A stretch of DNA of 64,000 nucleotides from an uncultured Porphyromonadaceae bacterium. Its GTDB lineage: Bacteria; Bacteroidota; Bacteroidia; Bacteroidales; Muribaculaceae. Below the pieces are notes generated by a model. The model was not told where the DNA came from, did not search any database, and worked only from the letters and a program-made list of their open reading frames with translations. This document shows, piece after piece, positions 24,913 through 44,759 of the stretch (positions are counted from its first letter, which is position 1; each line of letters opens with the position of its first letter). The translations under genes were made by a program, and so were the position numbers. The stretch covers positions 246 to 64,245 of the forward strand of contig CANOLV010000016.1 of assembly GCA_947567425.1 (NCBI GenBank). Direction: 5' to 3'.

Positions 24913-27447
24913 ATGAGAAATAGCGGAATTATCTGTTTTTTCATCACGGCGTTCATGCTTCTGTGTGCCAGGGATGCCGTTGCGATAAGTTATTATGGGT
25001 ATTATAATGGGGGATACTCGGGCTATGCGATGCTCCTTGACGAGGAGGATGAGGCGCTGACTGAAATCACCATACCGGCGCAGGCTACTGTCGACGGTGT
25101 GACCATGGATGTCGTCTTTGTGACTTATAACCATAACTCTGAAGATGGGAAAGAGCGAACTCCACAGTTCACTAATCTGAAGAAGCTCGTTATAGAGGAT
25201 TCCGATTCTGAGTTGCTTATGGATTATATTTATATATGGACGGGTCCGTATAGTGGTGATTATATAGGAATGTTTGCCAAATGCTCGACTCTCGAGGAGA
25301 TCTATTTGGGGAGAGAACTTGATCATGGGTATTATGAACCACTGGAAGTGGGGTTCAACGAAGCGCCTGTAAAGAAGTTGACATTCGCTGGAAGTGTGAA
25401 GAAAGCCGAGTGGGGTGGTAATAAACGAGACCATCTGGAGGAGCTTATTATTAAAGAGCCGGTGAAGGAGGTATGGAATTTCAGTGGGAGTACGAATCTG
25501 ACATCGGTCTCGCTGCCTAACTCTCTTAAAACGATCTACGATTATGCGTTCGCGGGATGCACCGGCTTGACTTCGATAGCGTTGCCTAATTCTCTTGAAA
25601 GTATCGGCGATGAGGCGTTCAGCGGATGCACCGGCTTGACTTCGTTTACCCTTCCCGGTAGTGTTGTCGATATGGGGTGGAGGTGTTTCAAAGGTTGTAG
25701 GTTCGATACCTTCACGGTCGAATACGGCGAGACGAAATTTACGAGAGAAATCACGCTTGATTATTGCAAGACGCTCAACGTCAATAGAATCGGAGGATAT
25801 TATGACTGTCCGAAGGTGACTGAGCTTAACATAGGTAAGGACATAACCGCGCTTGACCAGCAATTCATGAATATCGAGAATCTGGAGCGGTTCACGATGC
25901 CGGCTAATATTAATGTGGTGATAGCCCCGCTGTTTGAAGGCTGCGAGGGGATTAAGACCTTGACTTTCGAGGAGTCGACCGAGCCTCTCTACCTTACCGG
26001 CAACCTGTTTGACAATTCTCCGGGCCTTGAGGTGCTGAATCTTGACCGTGACCTCTACTACGGACCGATCACCGTGGGTGGGACTCACGACTACGACTGC
26101 AAGCCCTCGTTCGCCAATACGAAGGAGCTGACCACTATCAACTTCGGTCCGGCATTCACCAAGATCGTGCCGGGCATGTTCTCCGGTTGCGAGAGCCTTC
26201 GCTCTGTCTCCATACCCGACGGTGTGGAGATGATCTGCGACAAGGCTTTCTCCGGATGCCTCAAGCTGAAGTCGGTCAACATCGAGGATTCCGACAAGAG
26301 CATCACCATAGAGTCGTCGACCGAAAACGGCGGATATGGCACGACCTTCCTGCTGGCTCCGATCGAGACCATCTACATGGGCCGCAACATAGAGTACAAG
26401 GGCACCGAGCTGTCGCCGTTCAGAAATCTCATCTCACTGCACAACCTGACCATCGGCAACAAGGTGACGGAGATCAACGACTATCTTTACTACGGCTGTG
26501 CCAATCTGACTATGATGGCGGTTCCGTCGTCGGTCAAGCGGGTGGGCGGCTATGCTTTCTACGACTGTTGCGAAGCCAAGACCCTGACCATCTCGCGGTC
26601 GGTGGAGGAGATAGGCGAATATGCGTTCTATAACTGCAACAAGCTTAAGCGTGTCAGCATTCCGAATTCGGTGGTGACCATCGGCGACTATGCTTTCCGC
26701 TCCTGCTCCGGCGCAGAGACCATAAAGATAGGCGACGCCGTGGAGACCATCGGCCAGTATGCTTTCCTCGACTGCTTCGGCGCCAAGACCATCACTATCG
26801 GCGGCTCGGTGAAGACCATCGGTGACAATGCTTTCTATAACTGCGCGTCGCTTCAGCACATCGAGGTTCCGAACTCGGTCAAGACCATCGGCGACAATGC
26901 GTTCGCGCTGTGCGTCGAGGCTGTGGATGCTGTGATTGGAGAGGGTGTGACGGAAGTTGGCATGCGAGCCTTTGCCGACTGCGAGAGCCTTAAGTCGCTG
27001 ACTTTGGGAGCTTCCGTGGCCGACGTGGGCATGATGGCCTTCTTCAACTGCGAGAGCCTTCAGTCGGTATATGCCCGTCCGCAGGTTCCTCCCATGGCCG
27101 ACGAGACCGTGTTCTCCGACTATTCGGCCACGCTCTACGTGCCGAGCGGATGTCTGGCCTCCTACAAGAATGCGTCCGACGACTGCTGGCCTCTGTTCAC
27201 GTCGTGCCGTGAAAGCTCGTTTGACTATTCCGGCATAGACCTCCCCTCCATGCCCGATGCCGACATACCCGTAAGCACGGGCGACGGCTACATCGATTTC
27301 AGCGGATGTGATGCCGGCATGGATGTGACGGTGGTGTCGCTCGACGGAAAAGTGGTGTATTCAGGCCGTCCGGCGCGTCTGGATGTGGCCCCCGGAGTCT
27401 ATGTGGTTCGCGCGGCCACTGATGCTGTGAAGGTGCTCGTCAAGTAA
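24913..27447 (+). CDS. BspA-like leucine-rich-repeat surface protein with T9SS C-terminal sorting domain
   Basis: 844 aa. Signal peptide, many ~23-aa repeats (IP.SV..IGD.AF..C..L..I) and a C-terminal tail (VVSLDGKVVYSG..APGVYVVRA..KVLVK) typical of the T9SS CTD. Confidence 0.8.
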   Translation: MRNSGIICFFITAFMLLCARDAVAISYYGYYNGGYSGYAMLLDEEDEALTEITIPAQATVDGVTMDVVFVTYNHNSEDGKERTPQFTNLKKLVIEDSDSELLMDYIYIWTGPYSGDYIGMFAKCSTLEEIYLGRELDHGYYEPLEVGFNEAPVKKLTFAGSVKKAEWGGNKRDHLEELIIKEPVKEVWNFSGSTNLTSVSLPNSLKTIYDYAFAGCTGLTSIALPNSLESIGDEAFSGCTGLTSFTLPGSVVDMGWRCFKGCRFDTFTVEYGETKFTREITLDYCKTLNVNRIGGYYDCPKVTELNIGKDITALDQQFMNIENLERFTMPANINVVIAPLFEGCEGIKTLTFEESTEPLYLTGNLFDNSPGLEVLNLDRDLYYGPITVGGTHDYDCKPSFANTKELTTINFGPAFTKIVPGMFSGCESLRSVSIPDGVEMICDKAFSGCLKLKSVNIEDSDKSITIESSTENGGYGTTFLLAPIETIYMGRNIEYKGTELSPFRNLISLHNLTIGNKVTEINDYLYYGCANLTMMAVPSSVKRVGGYAFYDCCEAKTLTISRSVEEIGEYAFYNCNKLKRVSIPNSVVTIGDYAFRSCSGAETIKIGDAVETIGQYAFLDCFGAKTITIGGSVKTIGDNAFYNCASLQHIEVPNSVKTIGDNAFALCVEAVDAVIGEGVTEVGMRAFADCESLKSLTLGASVADVGMMAFFNCESLQSVYARPQVPPMADETVFSDYSATLYVPSGCLASYKNASDDCWPLFTSCRESSFDYSGIDLPSMPDADIPVSTGDGYIDFSGCDAGMDVTVVSLDGKVVYSGRPARLDVAPGVYVVRAATDAVKVLVK
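25490..27075 (+). repeat. Internal LRR_5/BspA-type coding repeats
   Basis: Iterated ~69-nt units. For example, an identical 21-mer GGATGCACCGGCTTGACTTCG occurs at 25554 and 25623. Confidence 0.7.
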
Positions 27448-28010: not shown

Positions 28011-28199
28011 ATGGCAAAGAAAGCTAAGGGTAACAGAGTGCAAGTGATCCTTGAATGCACCGAGCACAAAGCCAGCGGAATGCCTGGCACTTCCCGTTAT
28101 ATCACCACCAAGAATAGAAAGAACACCACCGAGCGTCTGGAATTGAAGAAATACAATCCTATCCTCAAGCGTGTCACTGTCCACAAAGAAATTAAATAA
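28011..28199 (+). CDS. rpmG: 50S ribosomal protein L33
   Basis: 62 aa, [20 protein letters not shown]...YITTKNRKN. Confidence 0.95.
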
Positions 28200-28209
28200 T
28201 ATTTAAGAT

Positions 28210-28854: not shown

Positions 28855-31800
28855 ATGAAGAACATTTGTTTCCAAATGAACCGAAAGGCATGGATAGTGG
28901 CGGTCATGCTACTGTGCCTGTCTTTCCCGGGTCTGGCTCAGAAGATTACCGTCAACGGTAATGTGTCTGACGCTACCGGTGAGCCCCTTATCGGAGCGAG
29001 TGTGTTGGCCAAAGGTACCTCTGAAGGTACGGCTACTGACTTTGACGGTAATTTTACGATTTCCGTCGAGCCTAACGCCGTCCTTGTAGTGTCATACGTA
29101 GGTTACGACACCAAGGAGGTGGCCGTCAACGGTCAGTCGACAGTCAATGTCGTCCTTTCTGAGAACAGCGTGATGCTGAACGAAGTAGTGGCCATCGGTT
29201 ACGGTACCGTGAAAAAGAGCGATGCCACAGGTGCGGTGTCGGCCATCAAGCCCAGCGAGATCCAGGCCGGTCTGGCCACTTCGGCACAGGACCTTCTTGT
29301 AGGCCGTAGCCCCGGTGTGGTTGTGACCACGAGCGGAGGTCAGCCCGAGGGCGGCGCCAACATCCAGATCCGCGGCGGCGCATCGCTTTCTGCTTCCAAT
29401 GAACCTCTTATCGTGATCGACGGCGTGCCGATGGACACCAAGGGCACGCTCGGATCGTCAAACCCGATGTCGCTGGTCAATCCGGAGAACATCGAGTCGA
29501 TGACCATCCTTAAGGACGCTTCAGCCACGGCGATCTACGGTAGCCGTGCTTCCAACGGTGTGATCATAATCACTACCAAGAAGGGTTCGTCCGGCAAACC
29601 GGTGGTAAACTTCGCCGCCAACATGTACATCAACACTCCGCGCAACTACGTGGACATGATGGACGCCGGTGAATTCTCAAGATTCATCCTCAACCGCTAT
29701 GGCGAGGGTTCGCCCCAGGCAAAGGCTCTCGGACAGTACAACACCGACTGGCAGAAGGAAGTGCTCCGCACCACCGTGTCGAGCGACTATAACCTGAGCG
29801 TCGGCGGAACTTATAAGTTCCTCCCTTACCGAGTCTCGGTAAGTGACGAACTTAAAAATTGGAACCTTACTCACTCAAGGAAGGTGACCCCGAAAAAGAG
29901 GGTATACAAGTAGCCCAAGATATGGGACGCGGTACGTTACACCAATAACAATGGTATCATACGTACCACTAAGATGGACCGCGTGACCGTGGGCATCAAC
30001 CTGTCGCCCAAGTTCTTCGACGGACTCCTCTCGATCAACGCCAACGTCCGCGGCGCTTATCTGAAAAACCGCTACCATAAGGGTGAGACTCTCGGCAACG
30101 CCGTCAGCTTCAACCCGACTCTGCCGGTGTATAATCCGGAAGGAAACGTGTTCAACAACTATACCACATACGTGGGTACGGGCGTGGCCGGTCCTAACTC
30201 CAAGGGCGACCAGATAAACACGCTTAAGGCCCTCAACCCGGTGTCTCTTCTCAACGACTACCGTTCGGTGTCGGATGTCTATCAGAGCATCGGCAATATC
30301 CAGTTTGACCTGGCCATGCCTTTCCTCCCCGACCTCCATGCCAACCTTAACCTCGGCTACGACATAAGCAAGTCGAACGTCAACAACAATACTGCCGCCA
30401 ATTCTCCGCAGGCGTGGAAAGACGGTAGCGACCTGCCATATATCAAGGGCGTGGGAGCCGACGGCAACGAAGTGGATATGCTCGTGCCGGTGGGCGACAT
30501 AGCCAACGGCGGCTACTTTATCAAGAACACTAAGGACGGTGCCGGACGCTACAGCTACGAGCATCAGGTGAAGGCCAACCTTCTTCTTGACTTCTACTTG
30601 AACTATAAGCATAACTTTGAGGAGGCATACTCCAACCTCGACGTGACGGCCGGCTATTCATGGCAGTCGTTCCGCTGGCAGGGCAAGAGCTTCAGCAACA
30701 TCAATTCGGGCGAATACGAAGGATTCCAGGGCTATGCCACTTCCAACTACCGCAATGACCTGGCGCTCGTGTCGTTCTTCGGACGTGTGAACTATACGTT
30801 CATGGACAAATATCTGGCCACTGTCACCGTACGTGGCGACGGTACGTCGCGATTCTCGAAGGACCACCGTTGGGGTACATTCCCCTCCGTGGCTCTCGGA
30901 TGGCGTGTCATCGACGAGGACTTCATGGAACCGATACGCAACGTGTTCTCCGAACTTAAGCTCCGTGGGGGCTGGGGTATCACCGGTCAGCAGGACATAG
31001 GCGACAACTATTTCCCCTATCTGCCTATCTACACTATCGGCAACAACGGTAATCCGACCCCGAACACCACGGCTTACCCGAGTACTAAACCCGGTCAGGG
31101 CGGATTCATCAACGTGATAAAGCCTAACGGATATAATTCCGACCTTAAGTGGGAGGAGACCACCACATGGAACCTGGGTCTGGACTTCGGTCTGTTCAAC
31201 AACCGCGTCAACGGTAGCTTCGACTTCTATAAGCGCAAGACCAAGGACCTTCTCACATGGTCGACCGTGGCTGCCGGATCGAACCTGACCAACGCCATGA
31301 ACACCAATATCGGCGACCTTGAGAACACCGGTATAGAGTTCAACGTCAACGCCCGTCCTATCGTGACTCAGGACTTCACCTGGACCACTGACTTCAACAT
31401 CTCCTGGAATAAGAACAAGATCACCAAGCTGACTGCCGGCGACGATCCCGACTACTTCATCGCCACAGGCGGCATATCGGCCGGTACGGGTACTAATATC
31501 CAGGCCCATAAGGTCGGCTATCCTGCCTACAGCTTCTATGTATATCAGCAGGTATATGACGTGAACGGCGACCCGATCGAGGGTCAGTACGTGGACCGAA
31601 ACGGCGACGGACAGATCACCGAGGCCGACAAATACATGTACCACAGCCGCGACCCGAAAGTGGTGTTCACCTGGAGCAATACGTTCAACTATAAGAACTG
31701 GGACTTCGGCATCGTGCTCCGCGCCAATATCGGCAACTGGGTCTACAACGACTTCGAAGCCGCCAATACATCCATCTCGGCCACCCAGTCGGCTCCTCTG

Positions 31801-32091
31801 AGCAATCTGATGAGCGGACGCCACCTATTCCAGGATCTCGGCGTGCAGGGTGTGCAGAGCGACTACTTCGTGCGCAATGCCTCGTTCCTCCGCTGCGACA
31901 ACATCACCGTGGGCTACACTTGGCCCGGTCTGCTCAACGACGCTCTCCGTCTGCGTGTCTACGGAGCCGTGCAGAATCCGTTCGTGATCACCAAGTACAA
32001 TGGCCTTGATCCGGAAGTATTCTCCGGTATCGACCGTGAGGTATATCCGCGGCCTATCACAGTGTCGTTCGGTGTTGTAGCTCAATTCTAA
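28855..32091 (+). pseudogene. susC: SusC/RagA-type TonB-dependent transporter, interrupted by an in-frame 93-nt insertion carrying a TAG stop
   Basis: ORFs 28855-29913 and 29974-32091 are in the same frame. The N-part has a carboxypeptidase-regulatory-like domain (ITVNGNVSDATGEPLIGASV) and plug (VIDGVPM..). The reading frame runs ..LPYRVSVS[31 foreign codons incl. TAG at 29911]YTNNNGIIRTTKMDRVTVGINL.., whereas this SusC family, as I remember it (no alignment run), normally reads RVS..YTN..G contiguously. Confidence 0.8.
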
Positions 32092-32111: not shown

Positions 32112-33689
32112 ATGATTATAAATAAGATAAAATCCATATCTATCGCCTGTGTGGCCACGTTTGCACTGGGTGCTTCGGTGACCTCATGTGTCGACGACCT
32201 CGATGTGACACCTAAGAATCCGAGCAATCTTACCGACCTCACCAACGGCGACGAGTATTATCAGTTTCTGGCTCAGGTCTACGGCGGTCTGACGCTGTCA
32301 GGTGTCAACGGCGGCAGCGACATCACTGTCGACGACCCCGGTGCCGGTGTCTACACCCGTCAGCTTTGGAATCTGCAGGAGCTGCCTACCGACGAGGCTT
32401 TCATCGGAAAAAACTGGAACGATGCCGGACTTGACGAACTTGACTATGCCACATGGTCGTCTGACAACCACTGGCTGTATGAAGCCATGTCGCGATTTAC
32501 ATTCCAGGTCAACATCTGCAATGAGTTCCTTCGCAAGGTCGACGGAGCTTCGTCGGTGGAGAATCCCGTTTCGGCCGAAGAGATAGCCCGCATGAAGTGC
32601 GAGGCCCGCACGCTTCGTGCATTGTCCTACTATCATATCATGGACTGCTTCGGCGTGGGTCCGTATGTGACCGAGGACCATGCCATCGGTACCGTTCCTC
32701 CCACCATGAAGCGTGAGGAGATGTTCCCGCTCGTGGTCGAGGATCTTAAGGAGGCTGTCCAGGGGCTTCCGCTCGCCAAGGACCAGGTCTACGGACGTGT
32801 CTCCCGCGAGGCCGGCTATATGCTTCTGGCAAAACTCTATCTTAACGCCGAAGTCTACACCGGCACTCCGATGTGGACGGAATGTGCGCAGGCCTGTCAG
32901 GAGATTCTCAAGACCAACAATACGCTTGCTCCCGAATACAAGTATCTGTTCTGCGGCAGCAACGACAAGTATGTAGGCACGGGTGAGATTCTCTGGGGTG
33001 TGCCTCAGGACAACTCCTACACCCAGTCATACGGCGGCACCACCTATCTCGGCATGGGCGCCTACAATGTCAGCATCGACGAGAACCTCCAGAAGCGTCT
33101 CGGCATCAGCGGTACGGGCTGGGGCGGTCCGCGCGTACGTCCGGAGCTTGCCAACGTGATCTCCCGCGCCGACAAGCGCTATCTGTTCTACACCGAGGGT
33201 CTGGCCAACAATCTGTCGAACATCGGCGACTGGGAACTCCCCGGCGGTTCAGGCTATATGTGCATCAAGTATGTCTACACCAACGAGTCAGACTACTACA
33301 ACGAAAGCGGTGCCGTAAGCCTCAACACGTTCAACAATGCCGACTGGCCTCTGTTCCGACTGGCCGACACATTCCTGATGCTTGCCGAATGCCAGCTCCA
33401 CGGCGTGCAGTGCAACGGCAAGAACTATTTCGACCTTGTACGCCAGCGCGCAGGTCTTGACCCTGTCGACCTTACTGCCGACAACCTGCTTGACGAACGT
33501 GCCCGCGAACTTTACTGGGAAGGACACCGCCGCAGCGACTTGATCCGCTTCGGCAAGTTCACCGGTTCATCCTATGTGTGGTCATGGAAGGGCGGCATCG
33601 AAGCCGGCCAGGGTATCGACTCTTTCCGCAACCTGTTTGCCGTGCCCACCCAGTACACTAACACCCTCGGCCAGAATGCCGGTTATTAA
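32112..33689 (+). CDS. susD: SusD/RagB family nutrient-binding outer-membrane lipoprotein
   Basis: 525 aa. Lipobox (GASVTSC). SusD hallmarks LRALSYYHIMDCFG, AKLYLNAEVYTG, ERARELYWEGHRRSDLIRFGKF. Confidence 0.9.
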   Translation: MIINKIKSISIACVATFALGASVTSCVDDLDVTPKNPSNLTDLTNGDEYYQFLAQVYGGLTLSGVNGGSDITVDDPGAGVYTRQLWNLQELPTDEAFIGKNWNDAGLDELDYATWSSDNHWLYEAMSRFTFQVNICNEFLRKVDGASSVENPVSAEEIARMKCEARTLRALSYYHIMDCFGVGPYVTEDHAIGTVPPTMKREEMFPLVVEDLKEAVQGLPLAKDQVYGRVSREAGYMLLAKLYLNAEVYTGTPMWTECAQACQEILKTNNTLAPEYKYLFCGSNDKYVGTGEILWGVPQDNSYTQSYGGTTYLGMGAYNVSIDENLQKRLGISGTGWGGPRVRPELANVISRADKRYLFYTEGLANNLSNIGDWELPGGSGYMCIKYVYTNESDYYNESGAVSLNTFNNADWPLFRLADTFLMLAECQLHGVQCNGKNYFDLVRQRAGLDPVDLTADNLLDERARELYWEGHRRSDLIRFGKFTGSSYVWSWKGGIEAGQGIDSFRNLFAVPTQYTNTLGQNAGY

Positions 33690-33719: not shown

Positions 33720-34667
33720 ATGAAAAAGATATTATTACTTTTTGCCGTGATTCTGACCGCCGTGGCGTTCACTGCCTGCAACGACGACGAGAACCCCAAG
33801 GCATATCAGCCGACAGATAAGAACTTCCTGAATGTGCCGCCTCTGTCGACTCAGACCTACGACCTGCAGACCGCCGGAACCGTGCGTCTAACCTGCTCAC
33901 AGCCCGACTACGGCGTCGGCACAACTCCGATGTACGGCGTGCAGGTGTCGCTCAACGAGGATTTCACCACTGTATATACCGGTTCCGAAGTCTACGATCC
34001 GGCCAAAGCCGTGGCTTTTGTGGAGCTTCCCTACGCCACCACCAACACCACTCTCGAAGTGCCTGCCAAGGATGTGGCCAACGGCATCAGCACTCTTCTC
34101 GGCTATACTGACATAACCGAATATGAAGGTCGCACTCCATACAGCGGTCCGCTCTATGTGCGCCTCCGTTCATATTTCCCGAAGCTTGACGGCGAGCTTG
34201 CCGAGATGTACTCGATCGAGTCCAATGTGGTGAAGCTCGACAATGTGCTCGGCTACGCCACTGTACGCCAGCCGGCCTGGATCTATCTCGTCGGAACTCC
34301 GGTTGCCGGAAATCCATGGCCTGGACCTACAGAGGATAATGCTGCACTGTTTGAACCGTGGAAGCTATATGAAGCTGACGATGCCATCGGCAGCGACATC
34401 TACAGCGCTACGTTTATGATTCCTGACGGACAGTTCGAATTCCGTTTCTATAAGGCTTTGACCGGATGGGACGAAGACTCTTATGGAGCGCAGAAGGACG
34501 ACAATACTGTGGATATCGGATTTGAAGATGACGAATATGCAGGACCGATAGTCAAAGGTAAGGGTAAATATCATGTGCCGGGATGGACTGCCGCTTGGGT
34601 TAAGATGACCGTCAATCTGAAGTCTATGTCTGTGACATTCGACATCGTGGAGGAGCCGGCCGAATAA
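33720..34667 (+). CDS. susE: SusE-like outer-membrane lipoprotein
   Basis: 315 aa. Lipobox AFTAC. N-terminal SusE pattern YDLQTAGTVRLTCSQPDYGVGTTPMYGVQVSLNEDFT. Confidence 0.7.
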   Translation: MKKILLLFAVILTAVAFTACNDDENPKAYQPTDKNFLNVPPLSTQTYDLQTAGTVRLTCSQPDYGVGTTPMYGVQVSLNEDFTTVYTGSEVYDPAKAVAFVELPYATTNTTLEVPAKDVANGISTLLGYTDITEYEGRTPYSGPLYVRLRSYFPKLDGELAEMYSIESNVVKLDNVLGYATVRQPAWIYLVGTPVAGNPWPGPTEDNAALFEPWKLYEADDAIGSDIYSATFMIPDGQFEFRFYKALTGWDEDSYGAQKDDNTVDIGFEDDEYAGPIVKGKGKYHVPGWTAAWVKMTVNLKSMSVTFDIVEEPAE

Positions 34668-34719
34668 GCACCGGTGAATTAAATGAAAGTGTTCAAAAAT
34701 AAGTAATTCTTTGAAAACT

Positions 34720-36177
34720 ATGAAAATAGGATTAAATATAGCTCTTTTTGCGGTTCTTGCTCTCGGACTGGCTTCATGCAGCGACGACGAGTACAAGGGA
34801 ATCGCACAGGTGACTCCCGGCGAGCCGACCATGCCCGCCGACGGAATCGCGGCCACCGATGTCGTGGCCAACGGCGCGGCTGTGGATCTGAATGACGGCG
34901 CGGCCCGCCTGATCAACGTCACCAAACTCGAGGACTTCCCTGCAGGAAGTGAGCTTCAGGTGATGATGAGGGTGGCCAAGGCACAGGATATGTCCGGTGC
35001 GCAGAGCGTGGCCATGGTCAATACAGAGGGTGTCGACGGCGCGGTGTTGTCGTGCAATGCACCTAATACGGTGTTTAACAAGGTCCTTCAGACGCTTTTC
35101 GGTAAGAATCCGTCGGAAAAGACTGTCTACGTGGACTATACCGCCTATGCTGTCGACGGAACTTCGTCGGTGCTTCTTGGTGCGGTGGGTGCCGCCCAGA
35201 TGCTTAAGGTGATGCCTTTGGACCTTGGATATGTGGTCGAGGACGAATACTATCTGCTCAATACGGTCGACGGATCGACCTATAAGATGGTTCAGGCCGA
35301 TGCAAGCAAGGATGTCTATGACGTTCCCGTGTTTGACGCGGTCATAACGGTCGGGGCCGACGGCTTCGCATGGAAGTTAGTTCCTAAATCGGCTCTTAAT
35401 TCGCTCACTGACGCGTCGAAGCTGTACGGCAACGGCGAGCCAGGGGCCGACGCGGCCGACGGAGCACTGGTGCTCGGTGCCGGTGCCGGCGAAATCGAGG
35501 AGATGGGTCCCTATCAGTTCTCTGTCAACATGGAGAAACTGACATTTACCTGGAAGCCGGCATACAAGGCGCTCTACGTGGTAGGACAGGGTCAGGGCTG
35601 GAATCCGGCTACGCCTTCGCAGATGACCACCAAGGACTATATCAAGTATGGCGGATTCGTGCCGGTGGCCGGAGATTTCAAGATCATCACCACTTCAGAC
35701 GGAGAATGGTCGGAACCTCAGATCGGCGGCTGTACGTTTGAGAAGGACGGTGCCGACAGCTATAAGGCAGTGGCGAAGTTCGAGCAGGGCCAGGCCGGCA
35801 ATATGAACGGTCTGCCCAACGGACTCTGGGCCATGGTATTCAAGATGGATACCAAGGAGATCACCGCCTCTCCAGTCACCTCGCTTGAGTTCATCGGCGA
35901 AGCTACCGGTAGCTGGACGGACGAAAGCAAGGTGCAGGAGCTGACTCCGCAGCTTGAGAATGGAGTCGCTACGTCATGGACAGGCACCATCACATTCACC
36001 GGCAGCGGTGAATACAAGATCCGCGCCAACCACGGATGGACATTCAGTCTCGGCGGCGATGCCTCTCAGCTCGTCTGGGATGCCGGCAATATACCTTCGC
36101 CCGCTGCAGGTGAATATATCGTGACGCTGAACCTTAACGATCCGGTGCTTCATTTGGATATGCAGAAGGTCAATTAA
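34720..36177 (+). CDS. SusF/SusE-family-like surface lipoprotein (putative glycan-binding)
   Basis: ATG at 34720 (the track start 34711 is TTG). Lipobox LGLASC. C-terminal modules GDFKIITTSDGEWSEP and GEYKIRANHGWTFSLGGD resemble SusE/F CBM-like domains. Confidence 0.55.
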   Translation: MKIGLNIALFAVLALGLASCSDDEYKGIAQVTPGEPTMPADGIAATDVVANGAAVDLNDGAARLINVTKLEDFPAGSELQVMMRVAKAQDMSGAQSVAMVNTEGVDGAVLSCNAPNTVFNKVLQTLFGKNPSEKTVYVDYTAYAVDGTSSVLLGAVGAAQMLKVMPLDLGYVVEDEYYLLNTVDGSTYKMVQADASKDVYDVPVFDAVITVGADGFAWKLVPKSALNSLTDASKLYGNGEPGADAADGALVLGAGAGEIEEMGPYQFSVNMEKLTFTWKPAYKALYVVGQGQGWNPATPSQMTTKDYIKYGGFVPVAGDFKIITTSDGEWSEPQIGGCTFEKDGADSYKAVAKFEQGQAGNMNGLPNGLWAMVFKMDTKEITASPVTSLEFIGEATGSWTDESKVQELTPQLENGVATSWTGTITFTGSGEYKIRANHGWTFSLGGDASQLVWDAGNIPSPAAGEYIVTLNLNDPVLHLDMQKVN

Positions 36178-36347: not shown

Positions 36348-37508
36348 ATGAAAAAAGGACTTTTCGCATTGGCCATGGGCACGTTTGCCCTCGGCATCTC
36401 GGAATTTCTTATGATGGGCATTTTAGGGAAGCTTTCCCAGGATCTGGATGTGTCCATCTCTGAGGCCGGTCATCTGATATCGGCCTATGCCACCGGTGTC
36501 TGCGTGGGCGCCCCGGCATTGCTGTTTGTGAGGAAAGTGGCATTGAAGCGGATCATGCTCGTGCTTGCCGCGGTAATAGCCCTCGGCAATCTTTTTGCGG
36601 CGTTGTCGCCTAACTACTGGTGTCTTTTCGCGGCGCGTTTCATATCCGGATTTCCCCATGGGGCATATTTCGGCGTGGGAGCCATAGTGGCCCGCAGGCT
36701 TGCGAGTCCCGGCAAGGAGGTGTCGGCGGTGGCTTTTATGATCGGAGGCATGACCGTGGCCACTCTGGCCGGTGTGCCGCTCGGGACGTTTGTCACCAAC
36801 CATTTCACCTGGCGTATAGCGTTTATGATTGTCGCTGCCTCGGGCGTGGCCACTTTTTTCGCCATAAGGCATTGGGTGCCTCAGGTGCAGGGCCTGAAGG
36901 ACATGGGATTCAAGGGGCAGTTCAGGTTTCTTAAGACGTTGCCGCCGTGGCTCATATTCGGGGGCGTTATCTTCGGTCAGATAGGTCTGTATTGCTGGTA
37001 CAGTTATATCGATCCGCAACTCACGGAGGTGGCCGGATTTTCGGTCGATTCGCTTTCATGGCTTATGGTGCTTGCCGGATTCGGCATGTTTGCGGGCAAC
37101 TATGTGGTCGGACGCCTCGGCCCGCACTTCCGTCCGTCGGCGTTGTCGGCCACGGTGGAGGCCATCGGGGTGCCGGTGCTTCTGCTGTTCTACTTTTTCG
37201 GCGACATCAAGATCCTGGCTGTCGTGCTGATGATTCTCGGCACGGCGATTCTGTTCGGATCGGGCAGTCCGCTGCAGTCGTCGATAGTGGGCTATGCCAA
37301 GGGGGGCGAGATGCTCGGCGCCGCGTCGATTCAGATAGCCTACAATGCCGGCAATGCGATAGCGGCATGGATAGGCGGGGCCGTGATCAAGGCCGGCTAT
37401 GGATATGCCGCGCCTTCGGCTGTCGGAGTCCCTATCATTATGATTGGTTCGGCCATGCTCTATTACCTTTATTTCCATAGGGAAAGGCGCTTCGGCGTTC
37501 CCGACTAA
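36348..37508 (+). CDS. MFS transporter (DHA1/AraJ-YdhP-like)
   Basis: 386 aa, about 12 predicted TM segments, MFS N-terminal pattern LAMGTFALGISEFLMMGIL. Confidence 0.85.
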   Translation: MKKGLFALAMGTFALGISEFLMMGILGKLSQDLDVSISEAGHLISAYATGVCVGAPALLFVRKVALKRIMLVLAAVIALGNLFAALSPNYWCLFAARFISGFPHGAYFGVGAIVARRLASPGKEVSAVAFMIGGMTVATLAGVPLGTFVTNHFTWRIAFMIVAASGVATFFAIRHWVPQVQGLKDMGFKGQFRFLKTLPPWLIFGGVIFGQIGLYCWYSYIDPQLTEVAGFSVDSLSWLMVLAGFGMFAGNYVVGRLGPHFRPSALSATVEAIGVPVLLLFYFFGDIKILAVVLMILGTAILFGSGSPLQSSIVGYAKGGEMLGAASIQIAYNAGNAIAAWIGGAVIKAGYGYAAPSAVGVPIIMIGSAMLYYLYFHRERRFGVPD

Positions 37509-37608: not shown

Positions 37609-40600
37609 ATGAAAAGAAAGATTATTGCTTTAGCATTGTATGCCGCTTCGGCTGCCGGGATGGCTGCCGGACCGCTGTGGCTGCGCAATGTGGCCATATC
37701 GCCGGACGGCGGCACGATTGCCTTTACCTACAAGGGTAATATTTTTACAGTAAAGTCGACAGGCGGCGATGCCAGGCAGATAACGTCGGGGGGAAGCTAT
37801 AATACCTCTCCGGTGTGGAGCCCTGACGGATCGTCGATAGCGTTCAGCAGCGACCGCGAAGGTTCGATGGACATTTATCTGGTGGACAGCAAGGGGGGCG
37901 CGCCGCGCCGGTTGACCACCTACTACGGCAAGGAGACTCCGCTGGCGTTTAAGGACGACAAAAGCATCCTGGTCGCCGCGTCGATTCAGCCCGACCGCAG
38001 GGCCGCCCAGGGCGATTTCGGCAGTCAGGTATATCTGGTCGACACTGAAGGACACCGTCCGCAGATGCTCGTGTCATACGCCATGCCGGCCCTGAGCGTA
38101 GGGAAGGACGGCCGGATTCTTTATCAGGATAAGAAGGGCTTTGAAAATGAATGGCGCAAGCATGAGCGTTCGTCGGGCACAAGCGACATCTGGCTGATGG
38201 ACGGTGGCCGACATACCAAATTGACCGCTTTCAACGGCCATGACCTGAATCCGGTGTGGGCTCCTGACGGCGACTTTTACTTCATAAGCGAGGAGGACGG
38301 CACTCTGAACGTCTACAAGCGCTCGGTCGACGGAAAGCGGAAGACGCAGCTGACCAAATTTGCCACACATCCTGTAAGGTCGCTGTCGGCTTCCGACGGC
38401 GGCAAGATCGCTTTCAGCTGGGATGGCGAGATATACACCATGTCGGAGGGCGGACAGCCTGCCAAGGTGGAGGTCAATATCGTGACTGACGACTATGATT
38501 CCGATGTACGTAAGTCTGTGATGCGTTCCGGAGCCTCTTCTATGGCGGTGTCGCCTGACGGGGAGATGGTGGCGTTCGTGCTTCGCGGCGACGTATATGT
38601 CACATCGACCGAGTATAACACCACGCGCCGTATCACCGACACCCCTGCGCAGGAGCGTATAGTGGACTTCGCGCCCGACGGCCGCAGTCTGGTGTATGAC
38701 AGCGAGCGCGACGGCATCTGGCAGCTCTTTACGGCCGAAATAAAGGATCCTGATGAAAAGTCGCTCCTTTATGCCACTGAACTTGTTGAGAAACCGCTCT
38801 ATAAGAGCGACAAACCGTCGTTTCAGCCAGACTATAGTCCTGACGGCAAGAAGGTGGCTTTTCTTGAGGACCGCACTACGCTGCGTGTCATAGACCTCAA
38901 GACCAAGGAGGTGACGACCGCGCTTGACGGTAAATATAACTATAGCTATACCGACGGCGACATAGGATTTGAGTGGAGTCCCGACAGCCGGTGGCTCCTT
39001 ATCGACTATATCGGCGTGGGCGGATGGAACAATTCCGACATAGCTCTGGTGAAGGCCGACGGATCGGAAGTGGTCAATCTGACTGAGAGCGGCTACAGCA
39101 ATTCGTCGCCTCAATGGGTGCTCGGAGGAAAGGCCGTGGCATACGCCACCGGTAAATATGGCTACAAGAGTCATGGAAGCTGGGGCAACGAGAGCGATGT
39201 CGTGGCTATGTTCCTTGACGGCGATGCTTTCGATCGGTTCAATATGACCGAGGAGGAAGTCAAACTCGCCGAGAAAGCCGAGGCTGAGGCAAAGGAGAAG
39301 GCCGAAAAGGATAAGAAAGATGATAAAAAGAAGAAGGATAAGAAAAAAGGCAAGGACGACAAGGCTGACAAGGAAGAGGTGAAGCCGCTGGTGCTTGACC
39401 TCGATAACCGCCGTTACCGCATGGCGCGCCTTACTGAGTCGTCGTCGCGTATGGGCGATTATTTCTTGGCTCCCAAGGGCGATAAGTTCTACTATGTGGC
39501 ATCGAGTCCCGACGGTCGCAGCCTCTATGAGCGCAATATAAAGGACGGCGGTACCAAAGTGCTTGCGAAAGGACTCAGCGCATGGAATCTGATTCCCGAC
39601 AAGGATGGCAAGAATCTGTTTGTGATGACCTCGTCGGGGATTAAGAAGGTGTCGTTGAGCGACGGCGGTCAGAAAAACGTCAGCTTTGAAGCCGACTATA
39701 CTCGCCGCAAGTCGGATGAGCGCGGCTACATCTACAACCACATGTGGAGGCAGGTGCTCGACAAATTCTACGATGCCGACCTGCACGGCGTGGACTGGTT
39801 GAAATATAAGGATGAGTATGCTAAATTCTTGCCTTATATCAACAACAACTATGACTTTGCCATATTGATGAGCGAGATTCTCGGCGAGCTTAACGCTTCG
39901 CACACGGGTGCGAGGTTCTATGCTTCGGGCGCTCCTATGTCGACGGCTTCGTTGGGCGTGTTCTACGACGAGGACTACGCCGGCGACGGACTTAAGATAG
40001 CTGAAATAATCAAGCGCGGTCCGCTGGCTTCGCCCGCTCTGGGAATCGAGCCGGGCGACGTGATCATGTCCATCAACGACTCCCTCGTCCTCGCCGGTGC
40101 CGACTATTTCCCGCTTCTTGAGGGCAAAGTTGGCAAGAAAGTGAAGCTCGATGTAAAAAAAGCCGACGGCAAGCAGAAGACCGTCTATGTAAAGCCGATA
40201 TCCTACGGCGCTAACTCCGACCTGCTCTACCGTCGTTGGGTCGAGCGTAATGAAGCCATTGTCGACAGTGTTTCCGGAGGTCGTGTGGGCTATGTGCATG
40301 TCGAGGGTATGGACAGCCCGAGTTTCCGTGAGGTCTACGACCGTCTGCTCGGCAAGTACCGCAACTGCGATGCCGTAGTGGTCGATACACGCTACAACGG
40401 TGGCGGCTGGCTCCATAACGACCTTGCCATATTGCTCGGCGGCAAGGAGTATGTGCGCTTTACTCCGCGTGGACAGTATATAGGTAGCGAACCATTCTCG
40501 CAGTGGACCAAACCGTCGGCCATGCTTGTCAACGAGAGCAACTACAGCGATGCGCATGGGTCGCCGTTCACATACCAGTCGCTTAAGATCGGCGATGTGG

Positions 40601-40848
40601 TGGGAGCACCGATTCCCGGAACGATGACTGCCGTGTGGTGGGAGAATCAGATAGACCCGACTTTGGTGTTCGGAATACCGCAGGTGACCTCGCGCGACAT
40701 GGATGGAAATGTGCTCGAAAATCGTCAGCTTAATCCTGACGTGCTGATATATAATTCGCCTGAAAATGTGCTTCGGGGTGTAGACGACCAGCTCATCGGT
40801 GCCACCAAGCATCTGATGAAGAAGCTCGACGCGCAGAAAAAGAAATAA
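37609..40848 (+). CDS. Tricorn protease homolog (S41 peptidase with PD40/WD40-like beta-propellers and PDZ)
   Basis: 1079 aa. Repeated SPDG/WSPDG propeller motifs, ELNASHTG, PDZ-like segment and C-terminal S41 core (VDTRYNGGG). Confidence 0.85.
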   Translation: MKRKIIALALYAASAAGMAAGPLWLRNVAISPDGGTIAFTYKGNIFTVKSTGGDARQITSGGSYNTSPVWSPDGSSIAFSSDREGSMDIYLVDSKGGAPRRLTTYYGKETPLAFKDDKSILVAASIQPDRRAAQGDFGSQVYLVDTEGHRPQMLVSYAMPALSVGKDGRILYQDKKGFENEWRKHERSSGTSDIWLMDGGRHTKLTAFNGHDLNPVWAPDGDFYFISEEDGTLNVYKRSVDGKRKTQLTKFATHPVRSLSASDGGKIAFSWDGEIYTMSEGGQPAKVEVNIVTDDYDSDVRKSVMRSGASSMAVSPDGEMVAFVLRGDVYVTSTEYNTTRRITDTPAQERIVDFAPDGRSLVYDSERDGIWQLFTAEIKDPDEKSLLYATELVEKPLYKSDKPSFQPDYSPDGKKVAFLEDRTTLRVIDLKTKEVTTALDGKYNYSYTDGDIGFEWSPDSRWLLIDYIGVGGWNNSDIALVKADGSEVVNLTESGYSNSSPQWVLGGKAVAYATGKYGYKSHGSWGNESDVVAMFLDGDAFDRFNMTEEEVKLAEKAEAEAKEKAEKDKKDDKKKKDKKKGKDDKADKEEVKPLVLDLDNRRYRMARLTESSSRMGDYFLAPKGDKFYYVASSPDGRSLYERNIKDGGTKVLAKGLSAWNLIPDKDGKNLFVMTSSGIKKVSLSDGGQKNVSFEADYTRRKSDERGYIYNHMWRQVLDKFYDADLHGVDWLKYKDEYAKFLPYINNNYDFAILMSEILGELNASHTGARFYASGAPMSTASLGVFYDEDYAGDGLKIAEIIKRGPLASPALGIEPGDVIMSINDSLVLAGADYFPLLEGKVGKKVKLDVKKADGKQKTVYVKPISYGANSDLLYRRWVERNEAIVDSVSGGRVGYVHVEGMDSPSFREVYDRLLGKYRNCDAVVVDTRYNGGGWLHNDLAILLGGKEYVRFTPRGQYIGSEPFSQWTKPSAMLVNESNYSDAHGSPFTYQSLKIGDVVGAPIPGTMTAVWWENQIDPTLVFGIPQVTSRDMDGNVLENRQLNPDVLIYNSPENVLRGVDDQLIGATKHLMKKLDAQKKK

Positions 40849-42650: not shown

Positions 42651-44759
42651 ATGTTCAAATATTACAAACCAATCGTTATGTCGGCGACATTACTTGCCGT
42701 GGCTGCGTCCTGTACTACCGGGGAGCAGGCCAATGATAAGATTATCGACCGGCCTGAGGTGACTATCACCGACGGTAAGTTTTCAGTGGAGGCTCTTGAG
42801 GCTCTCGGACGAGTGACTGACCCTGTGATATCGCCCGATAAGACTAAAGTGCTGTTCGGGGTGTCGTATGAAAGCATCGAGGAGAATGCTTCTAACCGTG
42901 ACCTGTATGTGATGAATGTCGACGGATCGGATCTGACAAGGCTTACCAAGACTCCGAAGTCGGAGAACAATGCCGTGTGGATCAACGGTGGACAGCAGAT
43001 AGCGTTCATGTATCCCGACGGCGACAAGAATCAGGTATGGGTGATGAATGCTGACGGATCCGGACGCAAGTGCGTAAGCTCGGTGGAGCAGGGTGTAGGC
43101 GGATTTCTCATATCGCCCGACGAAAAGCATATAGTGATGATAGCCAACGTGAAGTACAGCCGCACGGCTCAGGATGTATATCCCGATCTGCCGAAGGCTT
43201 CAGGACGCATCATCGACGACCTTATGTACAAGCATTGGGACGAATGGGTGACCGAAGTGCCTCATCCTTTCCTCGGCGACTTTGACGGCAATGCGGTGAC
43301 TAATGTCGCCGACATTATGGCCGACGAGCCATACGAAGCTCCGATGAAGCCGTTCGGCGGTGTGGAGTCGTTCGCCTGGTCGCCTGACGGCAAGCAGTTG
43401 GTCTATGTGTCGCGTAAGAAGACCGGCATGGAGTACGCCCTTTCTACCAATTCCGACCTTTACCTCTATGACCTGGCCGACAAGTCGACCCGCAATCTGA
43501 CCGAAGGCATGATGGGCTACGACACGAACCCCGTGTTCTCCCCCGACGGAAAGTATGTGGCTTGGCTGAGCATGGAGCATGACGGATATGAAAGCGACAA
43601 AAACCGCATCTTTGTACTTGACATGGCTTCCGGCGAAAAGAACGACCTTACCGTCAACTGGGATTATACGGTAGATGCCATAGCATGGCAGCCGTCGAGC
43701 CGAGGCTTGTTCTTCCAGGCTTACCGCGACGGTGTGAAGCCGGTGTTCGCCATCGGTCTTGACGGCACTGTAAGTGTGGTGGCACAGGGTGAGTATGACT
43801 ATGAAAGCCTGTGCCCGGTTTCCGACACAGAACTCATCACCATGCATCATTCTATGGTGGCTCCTAATGAGATCTACTCGGTCAAGAACGGAGAGGTGAC
43901 CCAGTTGAGCTTCATCAACAAGGACCTCCTCGACAAGGTGACGATGCCTAAGGTGGAAAGGGTTATGGTGCCTACCACTGACGGCAAGGAGATGCTCACA
44001 TGGGTGATCCTCCCTCCCAACTTCGACGAGACCAAGCAATATCCCGCCATACTTTACTGCCAGGGCGGCCCTCAGCAGGCTGTCAGCCAATTCTGGAGCT
44101 ATCGCTGGAACTTCGCCCTCATGGCTTCCGAAGGCTACGTCATTATAGCTCCTAACCGCAGAGGTCTGCCGGGATTCGGCACCGAGTGGAATGCCCAGAT
44201 CTCAGGCGACTACGGCGGCCAGAACATGAAGGACTATCTCAGCGCAGTCGACTACATGAAGGTTAAGCCCTATATCGACGAGAAGCATATCGGTGCCGTT
44301 GGCGCAAGCTACGGCGGATTCTCGGTATATTGGCTTGCCGGCAACCACGACAACCGCTTTGCATGTCTGATTGCCCATGCCGGAATCTTCAACACTGAAG
44401 CGCAGTATCTTGAGACCGAGGAGATGTGGTTTGCCAACTGGGATCTCGGCGGTCCGTTCTGGGACAAGTCAAACGCCGTGGCTCAACGTTCGTTTGCCAA
44501 CTCGCCCCATCGTTTTGTCGACAAGTGGAATGCTCCGATCCTGATCACCCACGGAGAATTCGACTTCCGCATCCTTGCTTCTCAGGGCATGTCGGCTTTC
44601 AATGCCGCACGTCTGCGCGGGGTGCCTGCCGAAATGCTGATCTTCCCCGACGAAAACCATTGGATTCTCAAACCGCAGAATGCCGTGCTTTGGCAGCGCG
44701 TGTTCTTCCGTTGGCTCGACCGCTGGCTCAAGGAAGCCCCTGCCCAGCCCGCCGAATAA
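42651..44759 (+). CDS. S9 family (prolyl oligopeptidase/acylaminoacyl-peptidase type) serine peptidase
   Basis: 702 aa. Lipobox-like AVAASC, N-terminal beta-propeller (SPDG repeats), nucleophile elbow GASYGGF, and a C-terminal Asp/His region. Confidence 0.9.
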   Translation: MFKYYKPIVMSATLLAVAASCTTGEQANDKIIDRPEVTITDGKFSVEALEALGRVTDPVISPDKTKVLFGVSYESIEENASNRDLYVMNVDGSDLTRLTKTPKSENNAVWINGGQQIAFMYPDGDKNQVWVMNADGSGRKCVSSVEQGVGGFLISPDEKHIVMIANVKYSRTAQDVYPDLPKASGRIIDDLMYKHWDEWVTEVPHPFLGDFDGNAVTNVADIMADEPYEAPMKPFGGVESFAWSPDGKQLVYVSRKKTGMEYALSTNSDLYLYDLADKSTRNLTEGMMGYDTNPVFSPDGKYVAWLSMEHDGYESDKNRIFVLDMASGEKNDLTVNWDYTVDAIAWQPSSRGLFFQAYRDGVKPVFAIGLDGTVSVVAQGEYDYESLCPVSDTELITMHHSMVAPNEIYSVKNGEVTQLSFINKDLLDKVTMPKVERVMVPTTDGKEMLTWVILPPNFDETKQYPAILYCQGGPQQAVSQFWSYRWNFALMASEGYVIIAPNRRGLPGFGTEWNAQISGDYGGQNMKDYLSAVDYMKVKPYIDEKHIGAVGASYGGFSVYWLAGNHDNRFACLIAHAGIFNTEAQYLETEEMWFANWDLGGPFWDKSNAVAQRSFANSPHRFVDKWNAPILITHGEFDFRILASQGMSAFNAARLRGVPAEMLIFPDENHWILKPQNAVLWQRVFFRWLDRWLKEAPAQPAE

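Follow-up and report, generated by a model that had tools for sequence, protein, structure and literature searches.

A 93-nt interruption of a Muribaculaceae susC-like gene is probably a sequencing or assembly artefact over a real 41-nt tandem duplication

In mixed-template read-outs, such as double Sanger traces past a heterozygous indel and polyclonal or dephased Illumina clusters, the sequence is clean up to a breakpoint and from there on is made of bases from two out-of-register templates. Sequence-specific Illumina errors come as runs of mixed-signal miscalls for which two triggers have been documented, inverted repeats and GGC (Nakamura et al. 2011, PMC3141275). Short tandem duplications, for their part, constitute a class of loss-of-function mutations that can revert by precise deletion. 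The locus described here shares a feature with each of these. It lies in a 64,000-nucleotide (nt) stretch of DNA (the window) from a Muribaculum-like member of the Muribaculaceae, in which a susC-like transporter gene is interrupted by 93 nt. The sequence is clean to the breakpoint and then consists of bases from two out-of-register templates; the site offers the trigger context of a long inverted repeat together with GGC; and the allele that the strain really carries is a perfect 41-nt head-to-tail copy that shifts the reading frame. Most probably, the 93 nt correspond to no real molecule and represent a sequencing or assembly artefact over this 41-nt duplication, a reading that gains further if in-silico routes are counted in.

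The susC-like gene (28855-32091, + strand) is broken into two open reading frames (ORFs), 28855-29913 (352 amino acids, aa) and 29974-32091 (705 aa), which share a frame, as the first-pass annotation of this DNA had noted. The first ends at a TAG (29911-29913), while the second starts at the ATG at 29974 and lacks a signal peptide. Translation through the stop gives ...LPYRVSVS-DELKNWNLTHSRKVTPKKRVYK-(stop)-PKIWDAVR-YTNNNGII..., with 31 extra codons before YTNNNGII. The homologues have no such extension: the closest full-length SusC proteins (94, 93 and 89% amino-acid identity, 1046-1047 aa) are all uninterrupted and carry the motif LPYRVSVSYTNNNGI contiguously, and LPYRVS(V/L)(S/A)YT(N/G)NNGI is unbroken in 12/12 homologues where the motif was located. 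The first-pass annotation had described this motif as normally contiguous and had put the excess at about 93 nt. Both statements are correct, since a codon-level DNA alignment with the orthologues makes the window longer by exactly 93 nt. The annotation had also proposed orthologue alignment as a check on its reading, and neither the protein nor the DNA alignment places a homologous loop of ~31 residues at this position in any orthologue, all being contiguous. The 352-aa product is missing from the gene index and from a 15-billion-protein collection.

Contigs of the same strain (L007-L018; metaSPAdes, ENA assemblies ERZ134104xx and ERZ14212046) were retrieved by exact-protein look-up with susD and the 705-aa ORF. 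These and further contigs match the window at 99.9-100% identity over ~57 of its 64 kb, one 22.3-kb stretch being 100.000% identical, and within this overlap the sole segment that the other assemblies do not match is 29855-29925. The window is not a slice of the public contig NODE_331, since by the record ranges it runs ~17 kb past the end of that contig. Left of 29844, the full-depth contigs are identical to the window (L008 and L010 align without a mismatch), and low-coverage contigs show a few sporadic mismatches. More than ten of these contigs carry either no extra sequence at the site or an extra 41 nt, and the 93-nt sequence of the window is in none. The intact allele encodes a protein (P0130) with Pfam domains CarbopepD_reg_2 (33-112), Plug (121-236) and barrel (543-857), and contains one copy of a 41-nt unit, U. 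The duplicated allele contains U twice in tandem, which places the remainder of the gene out of frame (Table 1); two copies with 1-3 errors are found in L008, L012 and L018. Its 342-aa N-terminal product (P0124) is encoded on nine contigs, and the 705-aa product on four contigs besides that of the window. The borders of the duplication show no microhomology. Because the orthologues are uninterrupted, the single-copy state of U is ancestral.

A base-by-base comparison with these two alleles accounts for most of the 93 nt. After the anchor GGTAAG, the duplicated allele would continue with U and the next 52 nt, and the intact allele with the next 93 nt. The stretch matches the former continuation at 53/93 positions, the latter at 46/93, and one or the other at 82/93, against 42.9 ± 4.6 (maximum 60) in 20,000 composition-preserving shuffles. 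Where the alleles differ (75 positions), the window follows the duplicated allele at 36, the intact allele at 29 and neither at 10, so that 65/75 match one of them; at the 18 positions where the alleles agree, the window agrees with them in 17. This is the pattern of a mixed template, in which the bases following a shared anchor come from one of two out-of-register sequences and agree where these coincide, and, as for such a read-out, the 93 nt are not reproduced in independent assemblies of the strain. The source switches 37 times among 65 informative positions, compared with 32 ± 3.9 expected under an independent choice at each base; alternation occurs every 1-3 nt, with no run longer than 7 nt that fits either source. 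Recombination, transposition, template switching and repair copy contiguous tracts, never a 1-3-nt alternation sustained over 93 nt without indels, which argues that the stretch is a mixed read-out.

Ungapped scans of the window itself recover both registers. For the 85-nt core of the stretch, no position on either strand matches better than the one exactly 93 nt downstream (43/85; mean 21, sd 4.1). When the insert is removed, the best match on the + strand is the 85 nt spanning the insertion point (41 upstream plus 44 downstream; 49/85, binomial P ~1e-10), and the two flanking registers are the top two ungapped matches on that strand. These registers are mutually unrelated (17/85), yet they jointly cover 76/85 core bases, and at 27/36 core positions where one register fails, the other fits (P = 4e-10). 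Transversions dominate among the 36 core mismatches, with only 8 transitions. Taken as a whole, the insert matches the upstream 41 nt at ~68% and the next 93 nt at 50/93, whereas it matches the flanks of the orthologues at 42-45/93; being closer to its own flanks, it was derived recently from this very sequence. The description of the 93 nt as foreign, offered in the first-pass annotation, is therefore not tenable, with 82/93 bases traceable to two local allele registers. Registers shifted by ±1-3 nt are mildly enriched, which fits blurred phasing, although sequence autocorrelation could also produce this enrichment. Of the 11 positions left unexplained, a three-copy allele and right-anchored registers account for just 2-5. 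When the insert is aligned locally to its flanks with gaps, the scores of 24-29 are on their own not clearly above the null (99th percentile 27); the blend becomes clear only when ungapped register scans are combined with the second allele.

The structure of the site suggests why a read-out might fail here. As single-stranded DNA, the 82-nt duplicated allele folds into a hairpin with a 29-bp stem (dG -34.4 kcal/mol, z = -10.7), in which the 16-nt palindromes GGAACTTATAAGTTCC of both copies pair around the CTTACCGA/TCGGTAAG palindrome, and U, at which the hairpin starts, opens with GGC. Such a hairpin would plausibly make sequencing fail exactly at this site. The source genome probably carries the duplicated allele, possibly mixed with the intact one. 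Blended bases would then arise if reads or pile-ups combined two templates offset by 41 nt, possibly through a mixed population, through slippage over the repeat in amplification or sequencing, or through an ungapped pile-up consensus. An assembly artefact was already among the explanations listed in the first-pass annotation, and both the blend statistics and the absence from same-strain assemblies point that way.

Some further irregularities were observed in the comparison contigs. Two palindromes within susC codons, one a perfect 16-mer and the other with an 8-bp stem and a 3-nt loop, make up nearly all of unit U; the duplicate pair lies at 3743-3825 of L007. Low-coverage contigs contain errors inside the repeat copies, either substitutions or a 1-nt deletion (L008 3784-3824, L012 ~1186-1226, L018 ~43-83). 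In the second copy of L008, 2/3 wrong bases are the base of the intact-allele register in a comparison by eye, possibly a weaker version of the blending in the window. Contigs that are otherwise identical also show differences in dense clusters, 7-10 per 50-60 nt, in L011 against 28160-28207 and in L010 against 37831-37891; they could be recombination patches or local assembly errors.

Several points weigh against the artefact. It is deduced from the sequence, and no specific pipeline step can be named that gives a clean left flank, 93 blended bases and a clean restart at TTACACC. Once its signal is mixed, a read should not become clean again, and averaging of bases is not something that de Bruijn assemblers do. 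Compared with the other assemblies, the window has no errors elsewhere, hence is not the product of a generally noisy assembly, and the artefact does not account for the length of 93 nt (41 + 52). Part of this difficulty would be lifted if the stretch had been introduced in silico after assembly, by pile-up or multi-sample consensus, polishing, gap-filling or model-based infilling, and not by base-calling, a sub-case in which there is likewise no real molecule. A position-wise majority vote over ungapped two-allele alignments would yield the independent per-base choice, and clean sequence would resume at the right anchor behind a 7/8 copy of the unit end; the contig of the window is not among the public contigs with an identical 705-aa product. 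Nevertheless, the 52 nt beyond the 41-nt duplication would still require an error in the draft, and this particular route is unlikely. The opposite view, that the 93 nt are a real third allele, rearranged or heavily mutated in vivo from the 41-nt duplication at an unstable palindrome (for example by breakage followed by error-prone template-switching repair), is improbable. In its favour, the site is truly unstable (polymorphic, with a tandem repeat and a long hairpin), the assembly of the window is clean elsewhere, and the insert clearly derives from the strain's own flanks. However, switching between templates every 1-3 nt over 93 nt, with no indels, is not known from any repair or recombination process, the mismatches are mostly transversions (8 transitions/36), and the sequence is present in none of the more than ten same-strain contigs nor in the protein collections. 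A real molecule with the blended sequence, produced by some process not yet known, has a slimmer chance still.

The features that had pointed to a mobile element are largely accounted for by the 41-nt unit. The 8-mers CGGTAAGT (29837-29844) and CGGTACGT (29930-29937) are indeed 7/8 identical and spaced by 93 nt, a match of at least 7/8 occurring at just 0.16% of window positions at this spacing. The last 7-8 nt of the stretch (CGGTACG/T) are the end of U with one wrong base, and the apparent 8-bp direct repeat arises because the stretch ends with this one-base-miscalled copy, which leaves no target-site-like duplication. The palindrome CTTACCGA-gtc-TCGGTAAG, placed at the left junction by the first-pass annotation, is real, although it sits one base to the left (29825-29843) and is made of native susC codons: it is coding sequence of the intact allele and recurs in the orthologues L004-L006 with a variable loop base (CTTACCGAGTATCGGTAAG). 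The supposed right-junction hairpin (GGTACGT / ACGTACC, two 7-nt arms separated by 23 nt) is not significant; the left arm depends on a single odd C at 29935 where all other assemblies read GGTAAGT. The absence of terminal inverted repeats, by contrast, was correctly described: the insert ends GACGAACTT... and ...ATATGGGACG are non-complementary, and the sole inverted match uses native upstream codons. What the annotation missed among the features of the insert is its strong relation to its own flanks.

A foreign miniature mobile element, that is, the footprint of a miniature inverted-repeat transposable element (MITE) or insertion sequence (IS) that inactivated the gene with an 8-bp target-site duplication, would explain the 7/8 direct repeats around a lower-GC 85-nt core (insert GC = 0.43, flanks ~0.55-0.6), and the uninterrupted orthologues define its empty site. 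Against it stand the lack of terminal inverted repeats, the coverage of 76/85 core bases (82/93 overall) by two local registers, and the identity of the 'duplication' with the end of U. Further copies, suggested as a check, were also not found: there is no second copy in the window (up to 3 mismatches; short-word BLAST), and no exact match to an insert 29-mer in 596 Gb of GTDB species-representative genomes or to a 28-mer in JGI metagenomes, collections in which a native-unit 29-mer is likewise unmatched and from which the species is missing. A permissive Rfam search (E = 10) of 29600-30200 gave no known RNA or ribozyme. The chance of such an element is very slight. Lower still, and scarcely worth entertaining, is programmed recoding, either ribosomal bypass between the two CGGUA sites or read-through of the TAG, which would produce a full-length SusC and had been raised as a long shot. 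In favour of recoding, the length of the insert is divisible by 3, and similar 8-mers and a hairpin flank it. Yet the 93-nt sequence occurs in no other assembly of the strain and in no orthologue, the stop is 67 nt past the putative take-off site instead of next to it, 30 unrelated residues would enter the first barrel strands upon read-through, and the real allele at the site (+41 nt) is out of frame.

Further candidates were rejected. A simple tandem duplication is not what the window itself contains (50/93 downstream, ~68% upstream), while it is exact (41/41) in the other assemblies. An ancient, decayed tandem duplication is at odds with an insert nearer to its own flanks than to those of orthologues and with the ~99.9-100% identity of the rest of the gene to same-strain contigs, and the second register explains the mismatches. 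A spliceosomal-type intron (GTAAGT...TAG) is discounted in a bacterial gene, and its removal would not restore the conserved motif. Mutagenesis of the diversity-generating retroelement (DGR) type fails in that the mismatches are not adenine-specific and involve all bases.

The real lesion is of a familiar kind. The 41-nt duplication truncates SusC just past the plug, within the first barrel strands (342 + 705 aa), and, as the barrel ORF has no signal peptide, the transporter would be null. It is an ordinary frameshift with loss of function, affecting the outer-membrane transporter in a polysaccharide utilisation locus of susC/D/E type, and precise loss of one repeat copy would restore susC. 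The SusE-like neighbour hints weakly at starch or other alpha-glucans as substrates. Whether this happens in nature bears on the strain-variable, repeat-mediated ON/OFF switch that the first-pass annotation had envisaged: the strain variation is there, in the form of the +0 and +41 alleles, but a reversible switch recurring in gut Muribaculaceae populations through duplication and precise deletion is a tentative and rather doubtful proposition. At the flanking single-nucleotide polymorphisms (SNPs) 30652 and 31410, L007-L018 show all four combinations, and the intact allele is found on two backgrounds, both common to duplicated alleles; recurrent gain and loss, recombination or a chimeric metagenome consensus are possible sources of this pattern. 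Contig L014 (ERZ13410478 NODE_2886, 18.6x) starts exactly at the first base of the unit, and in a k=55 graph the intact and duplicated alleles would meet at its first 55-mer (unit + 14 nt). L013 and L018 were also observed to end within ~120 nt of the site, and these three contig ends suggest either a within-sample allele mixture or a coverage failure at the hairpin. The switch is weakened by the ~5x coverage of the intact contigs, by the fact that metagenome contigs may be strain chimeras, and by the ability of multi-k assembly to collapse a 41-nt tandem repeat. If it were true, the garbled sequence would reflect real within-sample heterogeneity, and a glycan transporter would undergo phase variation by a mechanism other than invertible promoters and shufflons, both of which are known in Bacteroidales.

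For annotation, the susC of the window should not be described with a novel insertion, mobile element or recoding site, the true lesion being the 41-nt tandem duplication. More generally, an orphan insert with flanking repeats in a raw-sequence scan may be a blend of two alleles, which a multi-register comparison with the flanks together with same-strain assemblies exposes fast. The duplication, which disables the transporter of a glycan locus in most sampled populations of a mouse-gut-type Muribaculaceae strain and may revert, is a modest lead on within-host adaptation and no new mechanism.

The same transporter shows other irregularities in related lineages. In one closely related lineage of the same 90% protein cluster (P0133 667 aa, P0131 388 aa, P0129 432 aa; NCBI contigs of 71,566 and 13,413 nt), the orthologous susC is split at a different place, by a frameshift after ...RVNYAFMGKY, beyond which the protein continues out of frame. 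Either the transporter was inactivated independently in that lineage or the split is a sequencing error. In the lineage of 89% identity (L004-L006, for example L004 1147-5148), P22-type portal and SU10-type major capsid genes lie directly upstream of susC, at a position where the window and L001 have the genes for ribosomal proteins L28/L33 and DUF4295, so that synteny breaks beside the locus. Unrelated to susC, the window also encodes two large BspA-type leucine-rich-repeat (LRR_5) proteins and two Tricorn-protease-like proteins, at 24913-27447 (+) and 47132-49438 (-), and 37609-40848 (+) and 42651-44759 (+). The remaining genes of the locus are given in Table 1.

Table 1. Features of the susC-like locus in the window, and the two alleles found in other assemblies of the strain
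Feature	Position	Strand	Remarks
5' susC part: signal peptide, CarboxypepD_reg-like domain, Plug, first barrel strands	28855-29843	+	Native up to ...TCGGTAAG
41-nt unit U (GGCGGAACTTATAAGTTCCTCCCTTACCGAGTCTCGGTAAG)	29803-29843	+	Single copy in window; tandem-duplicated in most other assemblies of the strain
Perfect 16-nt palindrome GGAACTTATAAGTTCC	29806-29821	.	Inside unit U; codons for GTYKFL
Native palindrome CTTACCGA-gtc-TCGGTAAG	29825-29843	.	3' end of unit U; 8-bp stem, 3-nt loop
Garbled stretch, 93 nt	29844-29936	+	Between ...GGTAAG and TTACACC; final 7-8 nt resemble end of unit U
In-frame TAG	29911-29913	+	Within garbled stretch; terminates 352-aa ORF
3' susC part (beta-barrel)	29937-32091	+	Native from TTACACC...; ~99.9-100% identical to same-strain contigs
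susD-like	32112-33689	+	Pfam SusD_RagB / SusD-like_3
susE-like	33720-34667	+	Pfam SusE
Unassigned lipoprotein-sized ORF at susF position	34711-36177	+	Faint precomputed CBM_1st_SusF match on orthologous gene
Major facilitator superfamily (MFS) transporter	36348-37508	+	Pfam MFS_1
Intact allele (L010, L011)	...TCGGTAAG directly followed by TTACACC...		One unit copy; 1047 aa, P0130 on 2 contigs
Duplicated allele (L007/L015, L009, L013, L016, L017)	Perfect 41-nt tandem duplication of 29803-29843		Frameshift to ...YRVSVRAELISSSLTESR-(stop), 342 aa, plus 705-aa ORF

Set against known systems, the locus has partial likenesses to several. The 93-nt stretch recalls DGRs in having a nearby diverged copy with substitutions only and no indels. 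Unlike in DGRs, A is the insert base at 21/43 mismatches (hand count, 93-nt-downstream alignment), and the mismatches are explained by the register of a second allele; no reverse transcriptase is among the Pfam assignments of same-strain contig genes overlapping most of the window, to which no dedicated search for that enzyme was added. With the phage T4 gene 60 bypass it shares an untranslated gap between matching sites next to a hairpin, but here the stop stands apart from the take-off codon, the sequence is not conserved, and the real allele is a frameshifting duplication. MITE and IS footprints with target-site duplications are likewise short, non-coding, gene-interrupting inserts with, as here, an apparent 8-bp direct repeat, whereas this insert has no terminal inverted repeats, no other copies in the searched collections, and a sequence derived from the target. 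The mixed-template read-outs come closest for the stretch itself, with two differences: it sits inside a finished contig that is clean again after 93 nt, and its register shift is 41 nt (one repeat unit) and not the 1-2 nt of ordinary dephasing. As for the allele beneath it, copy-number change of tandem repeats is reportedly a form of phase variation in other bacteria, as in a study of M. tuberculosis. Unlike multi-copy simple-sequence tracts, the present case is a single duplication whose borders are without microhomology. As in the reversible class of tandem duplications, an intact allele also exists, on SNP backgrounds shared with the duplicated allele.

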